Of a DNA stretch of 58,510 nt, positions 42,976 through 49,642 are shown piece after piece. The DNA comes from an uncultured Verrucomicrobiota bacterium (GTDB taxonomy: Bacteria; Verrucomicrobiota; Kiritimatiellia; RFP12; UBA1067): assembly GCA_945834475.1 (NCBI GenBank), contig CAMAHK010000005.1, positions 1 to 58,510 on the forward strand. The letters run 5' to 3'. How positions within the stretch are numbered: position 1 is the first letter of the stretch; the number at the start of each line of letters is the position of its first letter. The translations under genes were made by a program, and so were the position numbers. The notes under the pieces are model-generated. The model did no database searches and was not told where the DNA came from. It worked only from the letters and a program-made list of their open reading frames with translations.

Positions 42976-43806
42976 TCATTCTTGTGAAACCGCAACACGG
43001 AAACCTAAATCGCATGCACTAGAATTTGGGAGTCCTCTATTGCGAGCCGCAGAGCGACTATAGAAGCTATTACCACTCCAGCCACCACCACGAAAAACTC
43101 GAAAATCGCCAGTTGAGCATCCCATGCGGTCAATTATTTCTTCTCCTAAACAATCCTCATAACAATCCTGACACCACTCCCAGACATTACCATGCATATC
43201 ATAAATCCCCCAGGCATTAGCACTTTTACATCCAACACAATGAGTCACACTTCCCGAATCCTCAGAACACCACCCCATTTCATCTATCTTTCCCGTCCCC
43301 GCATACGGTCCAGATGAACCTGCCCGACACGCATACTCCCATTCGCTCTCTGTCGGCAAGCGAAAGCCTGTTCCCGCCTTAGATAAGAAGTCCTGACAGG
43401 CACTCCAGGAAACTCTCTCAACGGGGAGAGAATCACCCTTGAAATTTGAAGGATTGTCTTTCATTACACTCCGCCACTGCGCCTGAGTAACCTCATACTT
43501 GCCAATCCAGAACCCCTTCGTCACTCTCACTCGATGCAAACTCTCGTTTTCACCACGGCCAGCTTCCAGCATCGGGCTACCCATATAGAACTCGCCTGGC
43601 GGACAATAAACAAGTTCTAATTTCTCTCCACCCGGCAGTTTAACTATCTTTACCACTCCCGTCGAGGCACAACACATTTCTTCGTGCAGCCTGGAGGTCG
43701 GCGTTTCCCTTTTCTCTGGCATCTCATCAGCTTTACGATGCTCCGAACAGCCGTTGCAAAGAAAGATCAGGAGTCCCACCATACAAAGGCCACCCAAAAG
43801 ATTCAT
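42976..43806 (-). CDS. FGE-sulfatase (SUMF1/CLec-fold) domain protein, probable lipoprotein
   Basis: PPGEFYMGS, KYEVTQAQW, PVERVSW, RLPTESEWEYACRAG, NAWGIYDMHGNVWEW, RGGGW, LGFRV; LCNGC lipobox-like. Confidence 0.88.
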   Translation of the reverse strand: MNLLGGLCMVGLLIFLCNGCSEHRKADEMPEKRETPTSRLHEEMCCASTGVVKIVKLPGGEKLELVYCPPGEFYMGSPMLEAGRGENESLHRVRVTKGFWIGKYEVTQAQWRSVMKDNPSNFKGDSLPVERVSWSACQDFLSKAGTGFRLPTESEWEYACRAGSSGPYAGTGKIDEMGWCSEDSGSVTHCVGCKSANAWGIYDMHGNVWEWCQDCYEDCLGEEIIDRMGCSTGDFRVFRGGGWSGNSFYSRSAARNRGLPNSSACDLGFRVAVSQE

Positions 43807-43969
43807 GGCACGGCCTCAACTTTGTGCGTTTTCAATTATCATTTAAAGCAAACCTCCATATCCCCTCGACCAAATACAACTTTACTTTGCGACAAGATTG
43901 AGCAGACAAGATTCACTGGGTTCGCAATCATCATAATTCAGGAAAATCAGACATCTCTTATGAGATAGT

Positions 43970-45634
43970 CTAATCCTGCGAGACTGCCAGGCGAAAACCG
44001 AGGTACTCACTTCTGTAAAACGGGCTGGCGTAGTCACGATAAGACTCAGCAAGACAACTCGCGTGATTACGCCACCCTCCACGACGATACACACGCTCCG
44101 AACTACCAACCTCACTCCGGTCTTCACACCACTCCCACACATTGTCATTCATATCGAAAAGCCCCCAGGCATTCGGTTCCTTCAATCCCACAGCTTGTAT
44201 ACCCCGCTCTTCTCGGTTATAACTGTACCTCCATGTTCGGCTCCCCATATCGGTTATACCTCCTGCGTGGCAGGCTGTTTCCCACTCTTTTTCATTCGGC
44301 AAACGATATCTACGGCCATCCATCTGACTAACACACCTGATAAATTCCTGACAGTCCTTCCAGGAAATATTCTCCACCGGGCGGTCAGGTCCACGATAGT
44401 CTGAGGGGTTACTCCCCATGACAGCCATCCACTGAAGTTGTGTTACTTCCGTCCGCTGCATCTGATAACGCTGTCCAGGAATCGCAATCATCTCCGAATT
44501 GGCGATGATCGGCCCGAGTGCATGGTCTTTGATATACGACGGAAGCGCATCAACAAACGCCTTGAGCTGCTTACCCATGGCCACATCACACGTGCAGACA
44601 TCTTCCGCGGATTTCTCCATCGTCCTATGATCCATATACCAGGCTTGCAATTGCCGGGAAAGCGCATTCATCTCGCGAACCAAATCATTGCGCTTAGCAA
44701 CGGCTGCCGCGAGCACGCGGCTATAACGCACATCATCCATCTGAATGTGTTGCTTAAACACCTCGGAAAGTAGCGCGTCGAGCTCCTTGAATTCACGCCC
44801 CATCTTCTGATAAATGGCGTTCGATTCTGGCGCATACTTAACAGCGAAATCGGATATCTTGCCCTCCATCGGATTCATCTCCAGGAGTGTATATCCAGCC
44901 CGTTCGACATTTTCAGGGAGCAGTCGAACGGCAAGTCGCTGCGTATCAATCTGTGCGAAGTCCTTGTCGGACAAAACGCCGAAACGACTCAAAAGCCAAT
45001 AATGGCAAAGTTCGTCATGGCAAATGAAACACTCAGTACGTGCCTTCACAAATTTCTCAAGAACCTTGTTGAATGAATTCCACCTTGGATCCGTAGACTT
45101 AATCATCCAAGGTTCTGAGAACTCTTCGTTGAAGATCTGCTGAAGTTCAACTAAAGCATCACGTTTCTTCTCGTAGTTGGCATAAGCGTTCGGCAAATAT
45201 TTCGTACCAAATTCCGACAGCAACGCTTCGCCCGCCAGCGCATCCGATTCTGACATGCCCAGCCGAGGCGATGACCACTTCGCCAGCCAGTCGGCCTTTT
45301 CATCGCGATTACGTCTGCGACCCCCGAGAAATGGATTCTCATACCGATAACCCTCGGAATAACACTTCTTGATGGCTGCCAGATCATGTTCAACCGTCTT
45401 TTCATAAAGAGCGGTCCGCATGGCAAGTCGCATCTTCTCCGACCGCCTCGCCTCTGCCCGCTCGCGCCAACCGTTTTGGTACTTAGCTGTAAAGCCCTCT
45501 AACGAAACATTCGCCTCTCCATCATCACTTGCCTGCCATGCCGCATACTCATCTTTACGCTCAGCGCTAATGCACCCACAAAGCGATACAAACAATACGA
45601 TGCACGACAACAGAACAACATTCTTATTCATCAA
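43970..45634 (-). CDS. Lipoprotein with a helical N-terminal region and C-terminal FGE-sulfatase/CLec domain
   Basis: LCGC lipobox; TEVTQLQW, PVENISW, RLPNEKEWE, PNAWGLFDMNDNVWEW, LGFRL. Confidence 0.82.
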   Translation of the reverse strand: MMNKNVVLLSCIVLFVSLCGCISAERKDEYAAWQASDDGEANVSLEGFTAKYQNGWRERAEARRSEKMRLAMRTALYEKTVEHDLAAIKKCYSEGYRYENPFLGGRRRNRDEKADWLAKWSSPRLGMSESDALAGEALLSEFGTKYLPNAYANYEKKRDALVELQQIFNEEFSEPWMIKSTDPRWNSFNKVLEKFVKARTECFICHDELCHYWLLSRFGVLSDKDFAQIDTQRLAVRLLPENVERAGYTLLEMNPMEGKISDFAVKYAPESNAIYQKMGREFKELDALLSEVFKQHIQMDDVRYSRVLAAAVAKRNDLVREMNALSRQLQAWYMDHRTMEKSAEDVCTCDVAMGKQLKAFVDALPSYIKDHALGPIIANSEMIAIPGQRYQMQRTEVTQLQWMAVMGSNPSDYRGPDRPVENISWKDCQEFIRCVSQMDGRRYRLPNEKEWETACHAGGITDMGSRTWRYSYNREERGIQAVGLKEPNAWGLFDMNDNVWEWCEDRSEVGSSERVYRRGGWRNHASCLAESYRDYASPFYRSEYLGFRLAVSQD

Positions 45635-45645
45635 TCAGTCTTTCT

Positions 45646-46380
45646 CTAGTCATTCAAGAAACTATTTACCTTCTTGTTCCGCCTGGCATTTGGATCTTCC
45701 GCCGTCAGATCTTCGATAGAAAATTTAGTCGGATCCTCATCAATTTCAATCATCATATCCTGAATCGTACCGAGGACATCATTTAGCGAATTAATCTCCG
45801 CAAGTGCCGCATTCATCTTCACCTGCTCGGCCTGCTGAACCAGCTTCATCCGCAAGGATACCAGTTCTCGCTTCTTCGTCTTCAGAACGCTCTTACGGAT
45901 GGACACCTTCTTGGCGATTGCCGTATTGTCCTTGTACTCCTTCTTGGCGAGCTCAACACGCTCCATCGCATCGGCGATTTTGTCATTGAGTTCGTCCTCA
46001 TCAAGGTCATAGCCGTTGACAGACACCGGCCACTGCCCGTTCGCAGCCTTGTACGCAGCTTTGGCTTTCTTGAGAAAGTTTTCGTATCGACTCTGCGTAC
46101 TCGTTGCATCTTCTGCCATCCGCATAGCCTTCTTCTCCATACGAACCAAGGTGATGTTCTGAACTTCGATCTTAGACTTCAACTTGTCGCAATTCGCAAT
46201 CTGATCCTGAAGGAAAAGATACGGATTCGCTTGAATATTCTCGCTCGTCCAGGTTGAATCCTGTCGGATCGCCTCACGGAGTTCAGCATTGCGAACAACA
46301 GACGGTGAGTTCGAGATAAGCACAGTATCAGCCATTACCGCCAACGGAAAAACCGCGACACAAGCAACAAGTTTATTCAC
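45646..46380 (-). CDS. Secreted long coiled-coil protein, possibly PspA/IM30-like
   Basis: GTG start with AAGGAG SD; signal peptide MNKLVACVAVFPLAVMA; heptad-rich K/E/A/L helices with a central WPVSVNG break. Confidence 0.7.
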   Translation of the reverse strand: MNKLVACVAVFPLAVMADTVLISNSPSVVRNAELREAIRQDSTWTSENIQANPYLFLQDQIANCDKLKSKIEVQNITLVRMEKKAMRMAEDATSTQSRYENFLKKAKAAYKAANGQWPVSVNGYDLDEDELNDKIADAMERVELAKKEYKDNTAIAKKVSIRKSVLKTKKRELVSLRMKLVQQAEQVKMNAALAEINSLNDVLGTIQDMMIEIDEDPTKFSIEDLTAEDPNARRNKKVNSFLND

Positions 46381-46397
46381 GACAATCTCCTTCGTAA

Positions 46398-46620
46398 TTT
46401 CTGCCGCGAACAATCGTGCAGAAAGAAACGGCCTCTCTCCGATCTCTTGAGAGGCCCTGAGAAAGCCTGATGTGAAATACGAAGAGAGGCACGCAAGTGT
46501 GTGCGTGTTGCTCTGCATCAGTATCGTCACATCAGAAATTTCTCAGGTTTCTCAAGACGATTGCTTTGCAGCGTTTATGTCTTGTCTCGGCGATTCACTT
46601 GCGTGCCTCGCGTCAACAAG
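46398..46620 (-). ncRNA. Candidate structured 5' leader/attenuator RNA
   Basis: 113-nt imperfect hairpin 46445-46557, overlapping terminator GGCCTCTC/GAGAGGCC + GTTTCTTTCT (46420-46456), 14-nt perfect complement 46596-46609 / 46486-46499. Confidence 0.55.
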
Positions 46621-46666
46621 ACGAATTATACCAAAAACTCCGCCGATTCGGGGCGGAGTTTTTTGG
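46573..46666 (-). repeat. 94-bp terminator-promoter-leader unit, copy 1
   Basis: AAAAACTCCGCC..GGCGGAGTTTTT hairpin + TGGTATAAT + leader ending ACAAGACATAAAC. Confidence 0.85.
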
Positions 46667-46690
46667 AAGTGCGCATACTGCCGGATTGAA

Positions 46691-47089
46691 TCAAACTTCC
46701 TTGAGAATCAAGTCCAACCCATTGATCTTGCGGAAATGCGCATCAAACGTCACCAACGGGGCGTTCTCTGACATCGCTTACGCGGCGATCCAAACATCGT
46801 TGATTGGAATCATTGCGCCAATAGCTTTTAACTCTGTGTAGATTCGCCCGTATGTCTCTGCCGCAGCACTTGTGACATCCAAAGCCCGAACACTCGAAAC
46901 AGAGAGGAACTTCTCAAGCGCAGTCTTATTCTGCTCATACCGAGATCCCTTCCTAAACCCCGCTTCGAGTTCTCCTAACACTACCACAGGAACGAGTACA
47001 GTATCATAAGTCGAGAGGAATTGAGCGATATCCATCCGCCCTCGCAACAGGAACGAATAGACATTTGTGTCAATCACAATACGCTTCAC
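46691..47089 (-). pseudogene. vapC: VapC (PIN domain) toxin with a premature TAA at 46778-46780
   Basis: IVIDTN, VLGELEAG, IPINDVWIAA*AMSENAPLVTFDAHF; the frame continues with PIN-type sequence to TGA at 46691. Confidence 0.85.
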
Positions 47090-47328
47090 TGCCAATCTCC
47101 CGGCACAACCGTACGACGGGTTGCATCTTGAAATTCGGCAAACTGATTCTCATCCCAGATTCCGCAAAACTGCTCGAACGGATTGTCGACCTTATCCGCG
47201 ACATAACCCATCTTCTCGACAAGGAAAGCGACAAAAAGAGCGCCAAGCTCAGCACTCGAACGAGTTCCATTGCGCGTCGCAAACGACACCGCATCCTGCG
47301 GCGCATCAATCGTCAGCGTATAGCTCAT
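47086..47328 (-). CDS. Putative VapB-like antitoxin
   Basis: 80 aa, SD AAGGAG, C-terminal F.G.W......EF motif, GTGA overlap with vapC. Confidence 0.7.
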   Translation of the reverse strand: MSYTLTIDAPQDAVSFATRNGTRSSAELGALFVAFLVEKMGYVADKVDNPFEQFCGIWDENQFAEFQDATRRTVVPGDWQ

Positions 47329-47370
47329 TGCCTTCTCCTTTCCCCTGATCGCGTAAATTGTCACAACTTA

Positions 47371-47463
47371 GTTTATGTCTTGTCTCGGCGATTCACTTGC
47401 GTGCCTCGCATCAACATTGCGAATTATAGCAAAAACTCCGCCGGTTCGGGGCGGAGTTTTTGG
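47371..47463 (-). repeat. 93-bp terminator-promoter-leader unit, copy 2 (also the hemA terminator)
   Basis: Six substitutions and one indel versus copy 1; TGCTATAAT at 47423-47431. Confidence 0.85.
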
Positions 47464-47479
47464 GGTGGAAACATCCATC

Positions 47480-48400
47480 TTAGGCGCGTGACAAAGCCTT
47501 AAGCCATGCCTCCGTTTTCGCCACCGATTCTTCCACGATCCGCAGGCCCTTCGCGAGAAGCGCCGCGCGTTCGGTGTGGTCGCCTTGGGCGAGTTCGCCG
47601 ATTGTCTCGAGACTGATGAGCATCGCCTGCGGATCGTCTGCGACACGCGGGTCCACATCGCGCGGCGAGGCGAGGTCGAGAAAGAGCGTCGGCTTCGTGA
47701 GCGCGAGGCGGTCCGCCGCGACAACCGTATGCGGCGAGGCCGTCGCCGACACAACGATATCGCTTTGGGCGATTTCCATGTACCGCGAGTCGTAAGGGAC
47801 AAGCCGTGCCCCGAGTCGCTGGGCGAGATCTGCCGCGCGTTCGGGACTCCGATTGCAGATCGCGAGCGCCGCCGCGCCGCGTTCGGCCGCAAGTTCGGCG
47901 GCGAGCGATCCAGTCCGTCCGCTGCCGATCACGAAGACGCGCTTCCCGCGGCAGCCGAGCCGACGCTCGACTTCGTCCATTCCCGCACGGCAGACCGACG
48001 GCGGAACGGCCCCGAGGTCGAGCTCGGTCTTCACGCGCTTCGCACAGGTGATCGCGTCCCGCAAGATGCGATCAAGTTCCTTGCCGACGTGTCCCTCGGT
48101 GCGCGCCGCAGCATAGGCGTCCTTGATCTGTCCGAGGATCTGATACTCACCCAGCACCATCGACTCCAGCCCCGCCGCGATTCGAAACAAATACGCCAAC
48201 GCCTCCCACGCCCCCCTTGTCTCCCGGGCGTCGCAAGTCGGAAGTCTCAAGTCCTCCCGACGATAGAAGAAGACTTCTTTGCGATTACACGTCGAGAGTA
48301 CCATATACTGCTCGAAATCGAGCGGACCCAGATCGACCTCCGCCTCGTGAAACGCAGCGCCCAGCGTCTTCCAACTTTCGCCTCGGTAGCCAAAGCCCAT
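47480..48400 (-). CDS. hemA: Glutamyl-tRNA reductase (short form)
   Basis: LSTCNRKE, AAGLESMVLGEYQILGQIK, VIGSGRTG, ICNRS, SATASPH, DLASPRDVD. Confidence 0.9.
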   Translation of the reverse strand: MGFGYRGESWKTLGAAFHEAEVDLGPLDFEQYMVLSTCNRKEVFFYRREDLRLPTCDARETRGAWEALAYLFRIAAGLESMVLGEYQILGQIKDAYAAARTEGHVGKELDRILRDAITCAKRVKTELDLGAVPPSVCRAGMDEVERRLGCRGKRVFVIGSGRTGSLAAELAAERGAAALAICNRSPERAADLAQRLGARLVPYDSRYMEIAQSDIVVSATASPHTVVAADRLALTKPTLFLDLASPRDVDPRVADDPQAMLISLETIGELAQGDHTERAALLAKGLRIVEESVAKTEAWLKALSRA

Positions 48401-49642
48401 TTACGCGCACTCCTTCGCGAAGAACTCGCGCACGACCGCAACCGTCCGCTCGAGCTCGTCCTGCGTGTGGGCGTCGGAAACGAAAAGCGCCTCGTAAGGG
48501 GACGGCGCCATGTAGATGCCGCGGTCGAGCAAGAATCGGTAGAACGCGGCAAAGCGCGCGTCGTTGCCGTGCCAGTCGATGCCGAGGAGCGAGCCGACCT
48601 GCGTGACCGTGATGAGATCGCCGCCCGCCCGCGCGAGGCCATCGGCGAGAAACGCGCCCTTCGCTGCGAGACGCGTATAGATCGCAGGATCAGCCGCCAA
48701 AAGTTTGAGCGTCGTCACGCCGGCCGCCGTCGCGAGCGGATTGCCCGAGAGCGTGCCCGCCTGATAGACGGGACCGTCCGGCGAAACTTCGTCCATCACG
48801 TCCGCGCGTCCTCCGTACACCGCCGCCGGGAGTCCCCCGCCAACGATCTTGCCGAGCGTCGTCAGGTCGGGCGTCACGCCGTAATAGGCCTGTGCGCCGC
48901 CCGCCGCGAGACGGAAACCCGTGATGACCTCGTCGAAGATGAGTAGCACCCCGTAGCGCGTTGTGAGCACACGGAGTCCCTCGAGGAAGCCGGGCGCGGG
49001 CAGGATGACGCCGTTGTTCGCGGCGACCGGCTCGACGATGACCGCGGCGACGCTCCCCGTGTGCGCGGCGAAGAGCGCCTCGACGGAGGCGAGGTCGTTG
49101 TATTCCGCGACGAGCGTATGCTTCGCGACATCGGCCGGCACGCCCGCCGAATCGGGCTCGCCCTGCGTTAGTGCGCCCGAACCAGCCTTGACGAGCATGC
49201 CGTCGGAGTGTCCGTGATAGCAGCTCGCGAACTTGATGATGTCATCGCGGCCCGTGAAGCCCCGCGCGACGCGGATCGCGCTCATCACGGCCTCCGTGCC
49301 CGAGGAGACCATCCGCAGTTTTTCCAACGACGGCATCAACGTGCGCACGCACTCGGCGAGTTCCGTCTCGCGGGCGGTCGGTGCGCCGTAGGTGAGACCC
49401 TTCAAGCACGCCTCCTGCACCGCCGCGACGACGGCTGGGTGCGCATGGCCAAGGATCGCGGGCCCCCACGAGCCGACATAGTCAATGTAGTCATTGCCCT
49501 CGACGTCCAAAAGATGGCTTCCCTTCGCCGCCGCCACGAACCGCGGTGCGACGCCCACGCGCAAACACGCCCGCACGGGCGAGTTCACCCCGCCCGGCAT
49601 CCGCCGCTTCGCTGCCGCGAAGAGTGCTTCATTCGTCGTCAT
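48401..49642 (-). CDS. hemL: Glutamate-1-semialdehyde 2,1-aminomutase
   Basis: PGGVNSPVRA, SSGTEAVMSAIR, YHGHSD, FDEVITGFR, TLGKIVGGGLP, YQAGTLSGNP. Confidence 0.96.
   Translation of the reverse strand: MTTNEALFAAAKRRMPGGVNSPVRACLRVGVAPRFVAAAKGSHLLDVEGNDYIDYVGSWGPAILGHAHPAVVAAVQEACLKGLTYGAPTARETELAECVRTLMPSLEKLRMVSSGTEAVMSAIRVARGFTGRDDIIKFASCYHGHSDGMLVKAGSGALTQGEPDSAGVPADVAKHTLVAEYNDLASVEALFAAHTGSVAAVIVEPVAANNGVILPAPGFLEGLRVLTTRYGVLLIFDEVITGFRLAAGGAQAYYGVTPDLTTLGKIVGGGLPAAVYGGRADVMDEVSPDGPVYQAGTLSGNPLATAAGVTTLKLLAADPAIYTRLAAKGAFLADGLARAGGDLITVTQVGSLLGIDWHGNDARFAAFYRFLLDRGIYMAPSPYEALFVSDAHTQDELERTVAVVREFFAKECA

Follow-up and report, generated by a model that had tools for sequence, protein, structure and literature searches.

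Organization of the Locus

The window, a stretch of 58,510 nucleotides from an uncultured bacterium of the Kiritimatiellia, carries on its minus strand a leader that runs from an extended -10 sequence, TGGTATAAT (46633-46625), to a gene for a 244-amino acid protein without a Pfam family. The translation start region (46378..46393) consists of the Shine-Dalgarno sequence GAAGGAG (46393-46387) and a GTG start codon (46380-46378). An earlier, sequence-only reading had placed a series of structures in this leader, and all of its coordinates were found to hold. The extended -10 is a putative promoter element. It is absent from the list of a consensus promoter scan because it has no -35 sequence; the promoter and terminator scan, whose output was no better than that of shuffled sequences, picked up neither the -10 nor the hairpin (c) described below. 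Two genes with formylglycine-generating-enzyme-like (FGE-sulfatase) domains follow the 244-amino acid reading frame (42976-45634, minus strand).

Upstream of the leader lies a vapBC toxin-antitoxin cassette (46691..47328, minus strand), consisting of vapB (47328-47086) and a PIN-domain vapC (47089-46691; PIN E-value 1.3e-9), and hemA-like and hemL-like genes are located upstream of the cassette. The cassette is flanked by direct repeats of 94 nt, both on the minus strand. Copy 1 (46573..46666) and copy 2, located ahead of vapB (47371..47464), are 93% identical, and each contains a perfect terminator-like hairpin, an extended -10 and a 5′ hairpin termed (a). The perfect hairpin of 12 bp at 46631..46664, which has A and U runs on its flanks, has the appearance of a bidirectional terminator for the cassette that precedes it. 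Hairpin (a) next to the 244-amino acid gene (46579..46622, minus strand) carries the 14-mer GAGGCACGCAAGUG (46609-46596), the exact complement of which is found at 46499-46486. A second copy of the 14-mer is located at 47394-47407. Since this copy sits within the direct repeat the two are not independent, and the 14-mer in the vapBC leader is a by-product of the duplication of the module. The action in trans that had been suggested for it is not needed to explain its presence.

Among the 117 genomes of the genus, vapBC together with the module was found only in the genome of the window (G000) and in G123. The vapBC promoter copy of G123 lacks hairpin (a), and the hairpin (a) next to the core still has 10 nt that are complementary to its own apex. 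In the sequence-only reading, hairpin (a) and its 14-mer had been part of the design of the switch; they are a subfamily-specific add-on. A paralogous locus in the genome of the window (C46) has the same layout, with module copies flanking a different antitoxin gene and a truncated PIN gene. In this locus (L002, G000:C46) the module copies are found at 1620-1750 and 2188-2295, and the repeats are about 108 nt as compared to 94 nt in the window. The two different toxin-antitoxin cassettes look like insertions by recombination between shared terminator-promoter modules. The vapC gene of the window contains an in-frame TAA at 46780-46778 (codon 104), while the 87% identical homologue in G123 is intact and has CAA at this position. 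One RNA-library contig likewise reads CAA at codon 104, and vapC in the window therefore looks inactivated by a single substitution.

The core element (46419..46579, minus strand) comprises a 5′ flank, a long hairpin, a tail and a U tract. Segment 1 (46556..46571) contains CUGCAA, the 5′ strand of a helix termed X, and GCAAUCGUC, which is the 5′ strand of helix Y and also of helix P0. The long hairpin (46445..46557), already recognized in the sequence-only reading, is built from helices P1-P5, is predicted from folding and covariation, and would act as antiterminator. On the 3′ side of its apex lies strand B, GCCUCUCUUCG (46480..46490), which pairs either with strand A in the hairpin or with strand C, CGGAGAGAGGCC (46430..46441), in the tail. 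Strand C is the 3′ arm of both the B:C helix, of 11 bp in this copy, and the local hairpin (c) (46430..46456). The latter is formed by GGCCUCUC (46456-46449) and GAGAGGCC (46437-46430), overlaps the 3′ strand of P1 at 46452-46445 and is followed directly by the U-rich tract GUUUCUUUCU (46420..46429). Further downstream, the 3′ strand of P0, ACGAUUGU (46410..46417), pairs with GCAAUCGU at 46564-46557; this duplex has a predicted energy of -8.0 kcal/mol and is part of the minimum-energy fold. A hairpin (d) (46398..46424), in which UUUCUGC (46424-46418) pairs with GCAGAAA (46404-46398), is an alternative to P0 and was absent from the minimum-energy folds of the 256-nt leader and of the growing-chain series. 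All of these elements are on the minus strand. For the 256-nt leader the predicted folding energy was -106.4 kcal/mol compared to -70.2 ± 4.6 kcal/mol for 200 dinucleotide shuffles (z -7.9), none of which was as good, and the minimum-energy fold of the leader includes the long hairpin of 113 nt.

A Multi-Copy RNA Family in Kiritimatiellia

The region 46579-46419 of the minus strand was found to be one copy of an RNA family of about 157 nt with many copies per genome. When the leader was used as a blastn query, several copies each of the region 46573-46422, at 70-87% identity, were detected in 18 of 36 other genomes of the genus. We built a covariance model, R1, from an alignment of 30 copies; it has 157 positions and 34 base pairs. 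The core element of the window covers R1 positions 1-157 with a score of 140.3 bits (E-value 9e-30), which is membership by construction only because this copy sat in the seed alignment of R1. Independent support for the core element comes from the homologous sequences in other genomes.

R1 gave about 390 matches in 96 of the 117 genus genomes, including 31 of the 32 high-quality ones, with 1-16 copies per matched genome. Five genomes that were searched in full had 11-16 copies each (66 RNA matches together), and the genome of the window has three full copies (C5, C46, and C38) and two partial copies. The copies are mostly located on different contigs and are thus dispersed, not arrayed. Within a genome, the copies share only about 70-80% identity. 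In one locus (L035, G010:C2, about 700-880) a GC-rich hairpin of about 55 nt is inserted between the conserved CAAUUUGCAACGCUGCAAAG block and the remaining core.

R1 also matched other families of the Kiritimatiellia. A class-wide sample of 151 genomes gave matches in 18, two of which belong to another family and carry 17 and 12 copies. A phylum-wide sample gave matches in 16 of 151 genomes, every one in families that were also in the class-wide draw, and zero matches were found in about 100 genomes of families unique to the phylum-wide draw. We also scanned named records for a 17-mer and checked the 80 resulting loci with R1. True members were found at 34 loci, nearly all labelled as Kiritimatiellae, Kiritimatiellia, Verrucomicrobia or Lentisphaerae metagenome-assembled genomes from rumen, omasum, cecum, and human gut. 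The other 46 loci were chance matches in unrelated taxa.

A scan of positions 45500-48500 against Rfam 15 gave no match, with best E-values of 1.5-8.8 and scores far below the gathering scores. For 20 related loci only a tRNA passed, and the upstream modules were without match too. A full-text literature search found no paper that links Kiritimatiellia (Kiritimatiell*) with regulatory RNA. Judged by its absence from Rfam and by the lack of a matching paper, the RNA family is not previously described. This is in agreement with the sequence-only reading, in which the leader was seen as a structured RNA belonging to no recognized family.

The Long Hairpin Is Maintained by Compensatory Changes

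Analysis of a MAFFT alignment with RNAalifold gave helices P1-P5, hereafter State I, with compensatory changes in 24 of the 34 pairs. In an alignment of 62 distinct homologues that is fitted by the model to State I (A3), 98.7% of the cells were paired and double changes were found in 31 of the 34 pairs. Slid controls reached 42-48%, and none of 500 shuffles, a control that ignores kinship among the sequences, was as good. On the structure-blind MAFFT alignment (A2) 98.3% of the cells were paired and 25 of the 34 pairs were doubly changed. Covariation among homologues had been named as a check of the proposed structure, and for State I it is far beyond chance.

Helices P1, P2 and the lower part of P3 vary freely among paralogues. 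One G:U pair is kept in 57 of the 62 sequences; G:U cells are common in general, and other non-pairs are rare. These strand-specific G:U pairs argue that the structure acts on a single strand and in this orientation. Together with the orientation bias described below, these pairs disfavor a DNA hairpin or a phased protein-binding array, which had been offered as an alternative to an RNA structure.

A Second, Mutually Exclusive Fold

The conserved primary-sequence blocks of the family are all strands of a second fold, State II. In State II strand B on the 3′ side of the apex (GCCUCUCUUCGUGU in the family) pairs with the conserved tail strand C (ACACGAAGAGAGGC) in a helix of 14-17 bp that is followed directly by the U tract. 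The remaining helices are X (CUGCAA with UUGCAG), Y (RUCGUY with GACGAY), Z (GAAAY with RUUUC), W (AGGC with GCCU) and P5, the last of which is the same as in State I. The arrangement of X, Y, Z, P5, and W recurred when B:C was enforced or in the unconstrained minimum-energy folds of several copies. For the energies of the two states given below, B:C was enforced by direction constraints, since a column-based enforcement mis-scored copies in which the tail is shifted by 1-2 nt.

Helix B:C was paired in 89.6% of the cells with double changes in 10 of 14 pairs (slid controls 46-67%). For X, Y, Z, and W together, 87.7% of the cells were paired, and 14 of 22 pairs had double changes (slid controls 34-49%). 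Helices X and Y were 87-97% paired across the family. On the MAFFT alignment all State II helices together were 91.7% paired and 15 of 34 pairs were doubly changed; this covariation rests on fewer events than that of State I, because the State II helices consist of conserved sequence. One pair in W was CG in 45 sequences, UA in 12, AU in two, GC in one, unpaired in one and a gap in one. One purine column was found to covary with two partners, a pyrimidine of P3 in State I (CG 15, UA 14) and a pyrimidine of the tail in State II (AU 13, GC 12). The P3 pyrimidine in turn has its State II partner in the 5′ flank. This double covariation is the signature of alternative partners.

Every State II helix but P5 needs nucleotides that are used in State I, and the two folds are therefore mutually exclusive. 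Averaged over the 58 copies analyzed, the predicted advantage of State I was 4.3 kcal/mol. In 21 copies the states were within 3 kcal/mol of each other, and State II was the more stable in nine. L056 and L059 are examples of copies with State II as the minimum-energy fold. Covariation support for both alternative folds is uncommon even among established riboswitches.

The U Tract and Accessory Features

At least five U in 8 nt were found within 12 nt after strand C in 55 of the 58 copies. P0 is formed by GCRRUCG in the 5′ flank and CGAUUGC, which comes shortly after the U tract. The P0 strands paired better with their own partners than with those of other copies (permutation p = 0.0055), and compensatory pairs identified by eye include GCAGUCG/CGACUGC, GCGAUC/GAUCGC, and GCUGUCG/CGGCGGC. 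P0 and helix Y have nucleotides in common, which assigns P0 to State I and to transcripts that read through. As P0 spans the U tract, it points to the existence of a functional read-through form, and the U tract could be structural.

A small hairpin, UUUGCA-N3-4-UGCAAA, overlaps the 5′ strand of X and is present in 43 of 58 copies; two divergent copies were seen by eye to have an UUUGCG/CGCAAA version of it. An extra pair of B-like and C-like strands (CCUCGAUUCGUGU ... GACACGGAACGAGGA) precedes P0 in 15 of 58 copies. The local hairpin (c) had been proposed as the terminator. For the window copy this holds in so far as hairpin (c) has its full 8 bp, is GC-rich and runs into GUUUCUUUCU. In the family as a whole it generally has a core of 4-6 bp, is paired in 71.8% of the cells and is strong only in the subfamily of the window; the conserved terminator helix is B:C, with the 89.6% given above.

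No conserved open reading frame was seen in the leaders. Start codons occur near strand C in a minority of copies and the peptides that they would encode are unconserved; the upstream modules were inspected by eye. Attenuation by a leader peptide was rejected, as no conserved short reading frame was seen to overlap segment 1.

Promoter-like modules are located 60-100 nt upstream of copies. The types recognized by eye were a terminator followed by TGnTATAAT and a hairpin, GGAAC-N16-17-CGG followed by a GC hairpin, and GUUCGGGAACUGA...CCCGAAC. The GGAAC-N16-17-CGG motif looks like an ECF-sigma promoter. Within the upstream 130 nt of L031, L032, L036, L038, L043, L047, and others, TGAAATGAAAGGAAC-N16-17-CGG is followed by a GGCGGGC-AACG-GCCCGCC hairpin. 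Some copies carry a GUUCGGGAACUGA...UUCCACCCCCGAAC module upstream.

Predicted Folding of the Window Copy

In the window copy, with its B:C helix of only 11 bp, State I was predicted to be about 7-10 kcal/mol more stable than State II. Hairpin (c) enters the minimum-energy fold once the tail is available; the predicted energy was -76.5 kcal/mol with hairpin (c) formed and -74.4 kcal/mol with P1 formed and the tail free. We also folded the chain as it grows. The duplex of the 14-mer with the apex was the minimum-energy fold with the 3′ end at 46480, the long hairpin then took over, and hairpin (c) appeared at 46425. The upstream 14-mer may hold strand B transiently during synthesis. Based on these predicted energies, the decision in the window copy is more likely one between P1 and a reinforced local hairpin (c) than one between State I and State II.

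The duplex between upstream sequence and apex is an outlier in the window copy (-23.3 kcal/mol). A general upstream competitor of this kind was rejected for the family; over 58 copies the mean energy was -14.5 kcal/mol with the own apex and -14.0 kcal/mol across copies (permutation p = 0.045). The sequence-only reading had proposed a logic of anti-antiterminator, antiterminator and terminator. It was right in kind, as the family has three-way competing helices that end in a U tract, and the energies make the scheme plausible at the window locus. Its assignment of hairpin (a) as the conserved anti-antiterminator did not stand, since the family uses the 5′ flank CUGCAAAGCRRUCGUY, which pairs with the 5′ arm of the long hairpin itself.

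Genomic Context

Of 58 copies, 52 are followed by a dominant open reading frame that has the same orientation as the RNA. The remaining six include at least two in which a forward reading frame is of equal length. The start codon is located 35-130 nt past strand C in most copies. Among 51 downstream reading frames, BspA-type LRR_5 was found in seven and no Pfam family in 23. Other families were Lectin_C, Peptidase_S8, Laminin_G_3, Peptidase_C13 (two), PEP-CTERM, GLUG, Lcl_C, FadL, and ankyrin, and further TIR_2, protein kinase, MBOAT, GtrA, PrsW, TM2, and others. By these assignments the downstream gene often encodes a predicted surface or secreted protein.

Among 48 related loci (e.g., L063, L067, L079, L024, L056, L039, L064, L071, and L034), 15 had a gene of the toxin-antitoxin or mobile type as the largest reading frame within 1 kb upstream. 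These were HepT-like (four), ORF6N (five), DUF3990 (two), Zeta (one), Fic (one), DUF4143/AAA (one), and rve (one), and they were often co-oriented with the RNA at a distance of 85-300 nt. A search for a regulator encoded next to the RNA found no consistent partner, either among the heterogeneous upstream neighbors of the 48 loci or in the five genomes with 66 RNA matches. The RNA-bearing contigs of these five genomes hold none of the 11 ORF6N genes and two of the four HepT genes, both of which adjoin an RNA copy.

Four RNA-library runs gave, on the window, short contig fragments of low depth from the conserved blocks and from vapBC, which may derive from carry-over DNA or from paralogues. One exact contig of 63 nt at 46559-46620 may have the same origin.

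A Candidate Transcription Attenuator

We consider it probable that the family is a new multi-copy, cis-acting leader RNA, a bistable transcription attenuator that is restricted, as searched, to Kiritimatiellia of animal guts. It has the parts of an attenuator, namely a stem followed by a U tract, an exclusive antiterminator that uses the 5′ strand of the terminator (B with A or with C) and an anti-antiterminator in X, Y, and Z. In State II, the presumed OFF state, the 5′ flank would pair with the 5′ arm of the hairpin through X, Y, and Z. This would withhold strand A and free strand B for strand C of the tail, and B:C together with the U tract would terminate transcription. As the B:C stem of 14-17 bp stands directly before the U tract, it resembles an intrinsic terminator; that it encloses about 45 nt, including helix W, is unusual for one. 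In State I, the presumed ON state, the long hairpin P1-P5 would sequester strand B and allow read-through, after which P0 would close and lock the whole element.

The elements would be synthesized in the order 5′ strands of X, Y, and Z, 5′ arm of the hairpin, strand B, 3′ arm of the hairpin and strand C. Since the 5′ domain can form first in this order, the OFF state may be the kinetic default. If segment 1 were blocked in any way, the long hairpin would be free to form, allowing read-through. The balance may be tipped by an effector. Candidates are a protein or a small molecule, or else the upstream leader module, which is variable and could target segment 1 or the small hairpin (UUUGCA..UGCAAA).

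The same folds could instead set ribosome access or RNase sensitivity, with the U/C tract and strand C being structural or acting as an anti-Shine-Dalgarno sequence. We regard such control of translation or RNA stability as unlikely. P0 pairs across the U tract, which implies a full-length leader with a conserved fold; the second B-like and C-like pair reaches the Shine-Dalgarno region in the 15 copies that have it, the start codon follows GAGAGG by 6-12 nt in some copies, and purine runs close to the Shine-Dalgarno sequence offer the U/C tract a pairing partner in L022 and in the window copy. However, most start codons lie 35-130 nt beyond strand C, the GAGAGG-proximal ones are not conserved, and 55 of 58 copies have what is classically the mark of a terminator, a long stem containing GC with at least 5-6 U immediately behind it. 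To a family of small RNAs acting in trans, with an own promoter, an end at the U tract and a CU-rich seed, CCUCUCUU, for Shine-Dalgarno regions, we give little credence. The promoter-like modules upstream, the terminator-like end, the many paralogous copies per genome and the fragments of conserved blocks in RNA-library contigs are what such a family would be expected to have, but the gene that follows closely is co-oriented in 52 of 58 copies, P0 is a conserved pairing with sequence past the U tract, and the CU-rich strand is buried in State I.

Multi-copy intergenic imperfect palindromes of about 150 nt may also be selfish DNA repeats of the MITE, ERIC, BOX, Correia or integron-attC type, transcribed merely by chance. 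The toxin-antitoxin or mobile-type genes just upstream of 15 of 48 copies and the duplicated modules around two different toxin-antitoxin cassettes in the genome of the window would fit such an origin. It is nevertheless highly improbable, as copies that are only 70-80% identical keep their pairing by compensatory changes, G:U pairs are common where other non-pairs are rare, the orientation is non-random with 52 of 58 co-oriented, and a second, non-palindromic fold covaries too. MITE, REP, ERIC or BOX elements would be near-identical copies in either orientation with terminal repeats and target duplications; by eye, no terminal inverted repeats or target duplications were seen at the ends of the element. 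Nor were RYYYAAC/GTTRRRY cores, expected of integron attC sites, seen by eye in the consensus, and the copies are dispersed over mostly different contigs. The sequence-only reading had held that a match to a known Rfam or MITE-type family would speak against it; the scans gave no Rfam match, and the MITE features named above were not seen.

Relation to Known Systems

The trp and pyr leaders use multi-hairpin attenuation with 1:2, 2:3, and 3:4 pairings, and PyrR, TRAP and T-box leaders are protein- or tRNA-dependent versions of it. The family resembles these classical attenuators in having three successive exclusive pairings that lead to a stem and a U tract in the 5′ leader of the gene that would be regulated. 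It differs from them in lacking a conserved leader peptide and a T-box, PyrR or other Rfam match, and in that the antiterminator is a 113-nt hairpin with freely varying stems, whereas the helices of the presumed OFF state are conserved in sequence.

The c-di-GMP-I (GEMM) RNAs are a multi-copy riboswitch class found before diverse genes for surface or secreted proteins, with terminator or antiterminator platforms. The family resembles this class in that a single genome has numerous copies, which lie in leaders of heterogeneous genes and often precede genes for surface proteins. It has no Rfam match, however, and no conserved unpaired pocket is evident, since the State II helices account for every conserved block. 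No motif for a binding protein was recognized either. ERIC, BOX, Correia, and integron attC elements are transcribed palindromic repeats or sites, sometimes located beside toxin-antitoxin cassettes. Like these, the copies are palindromic but imperfect, about 100-150 nt long and dispersed in intergenic regions, and their structure is better conserved than their sequence. Unlike these, they have an orientation bias, diverged paralogues with compensated pairs and a second covarying fold with a U tract, and they lack attC cores and terminal repeats.

Altogether, the family is a well-defined RNA switch candidate with both alternative folds supported by covariation, and R1 can be used immediately to annotate several hundred loci. 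It has 1-17 copies per genome and precedes genes for surface proteins, adhesin-like ones among them, in bacteria of gut and rumen. A broader reading, which we offer tentatively and hold to be possible but doubtful, is that the core serves as a shared expression platform, a two-state RNA switch that is portable and has been joined to at least three unrelated upstream modules and to different types of promoter. In response to a protein or small-molecule signal, it would set the accessory surface proteome of gut Kiritimatiellia, i.e., BspA-type LRR proteins, lectins, and proteases. If true, the family would form a new class, either of orphan riboswitch-like RNAs or of antitermination that depends on a protein, in a phylum for which regulatory RNAs are not known to have been described. 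The identity of the effector would reveal how these uncultured gut bacteria remodel their surface, and could add a sensing RNA or an RNA-binding regulator to those known.
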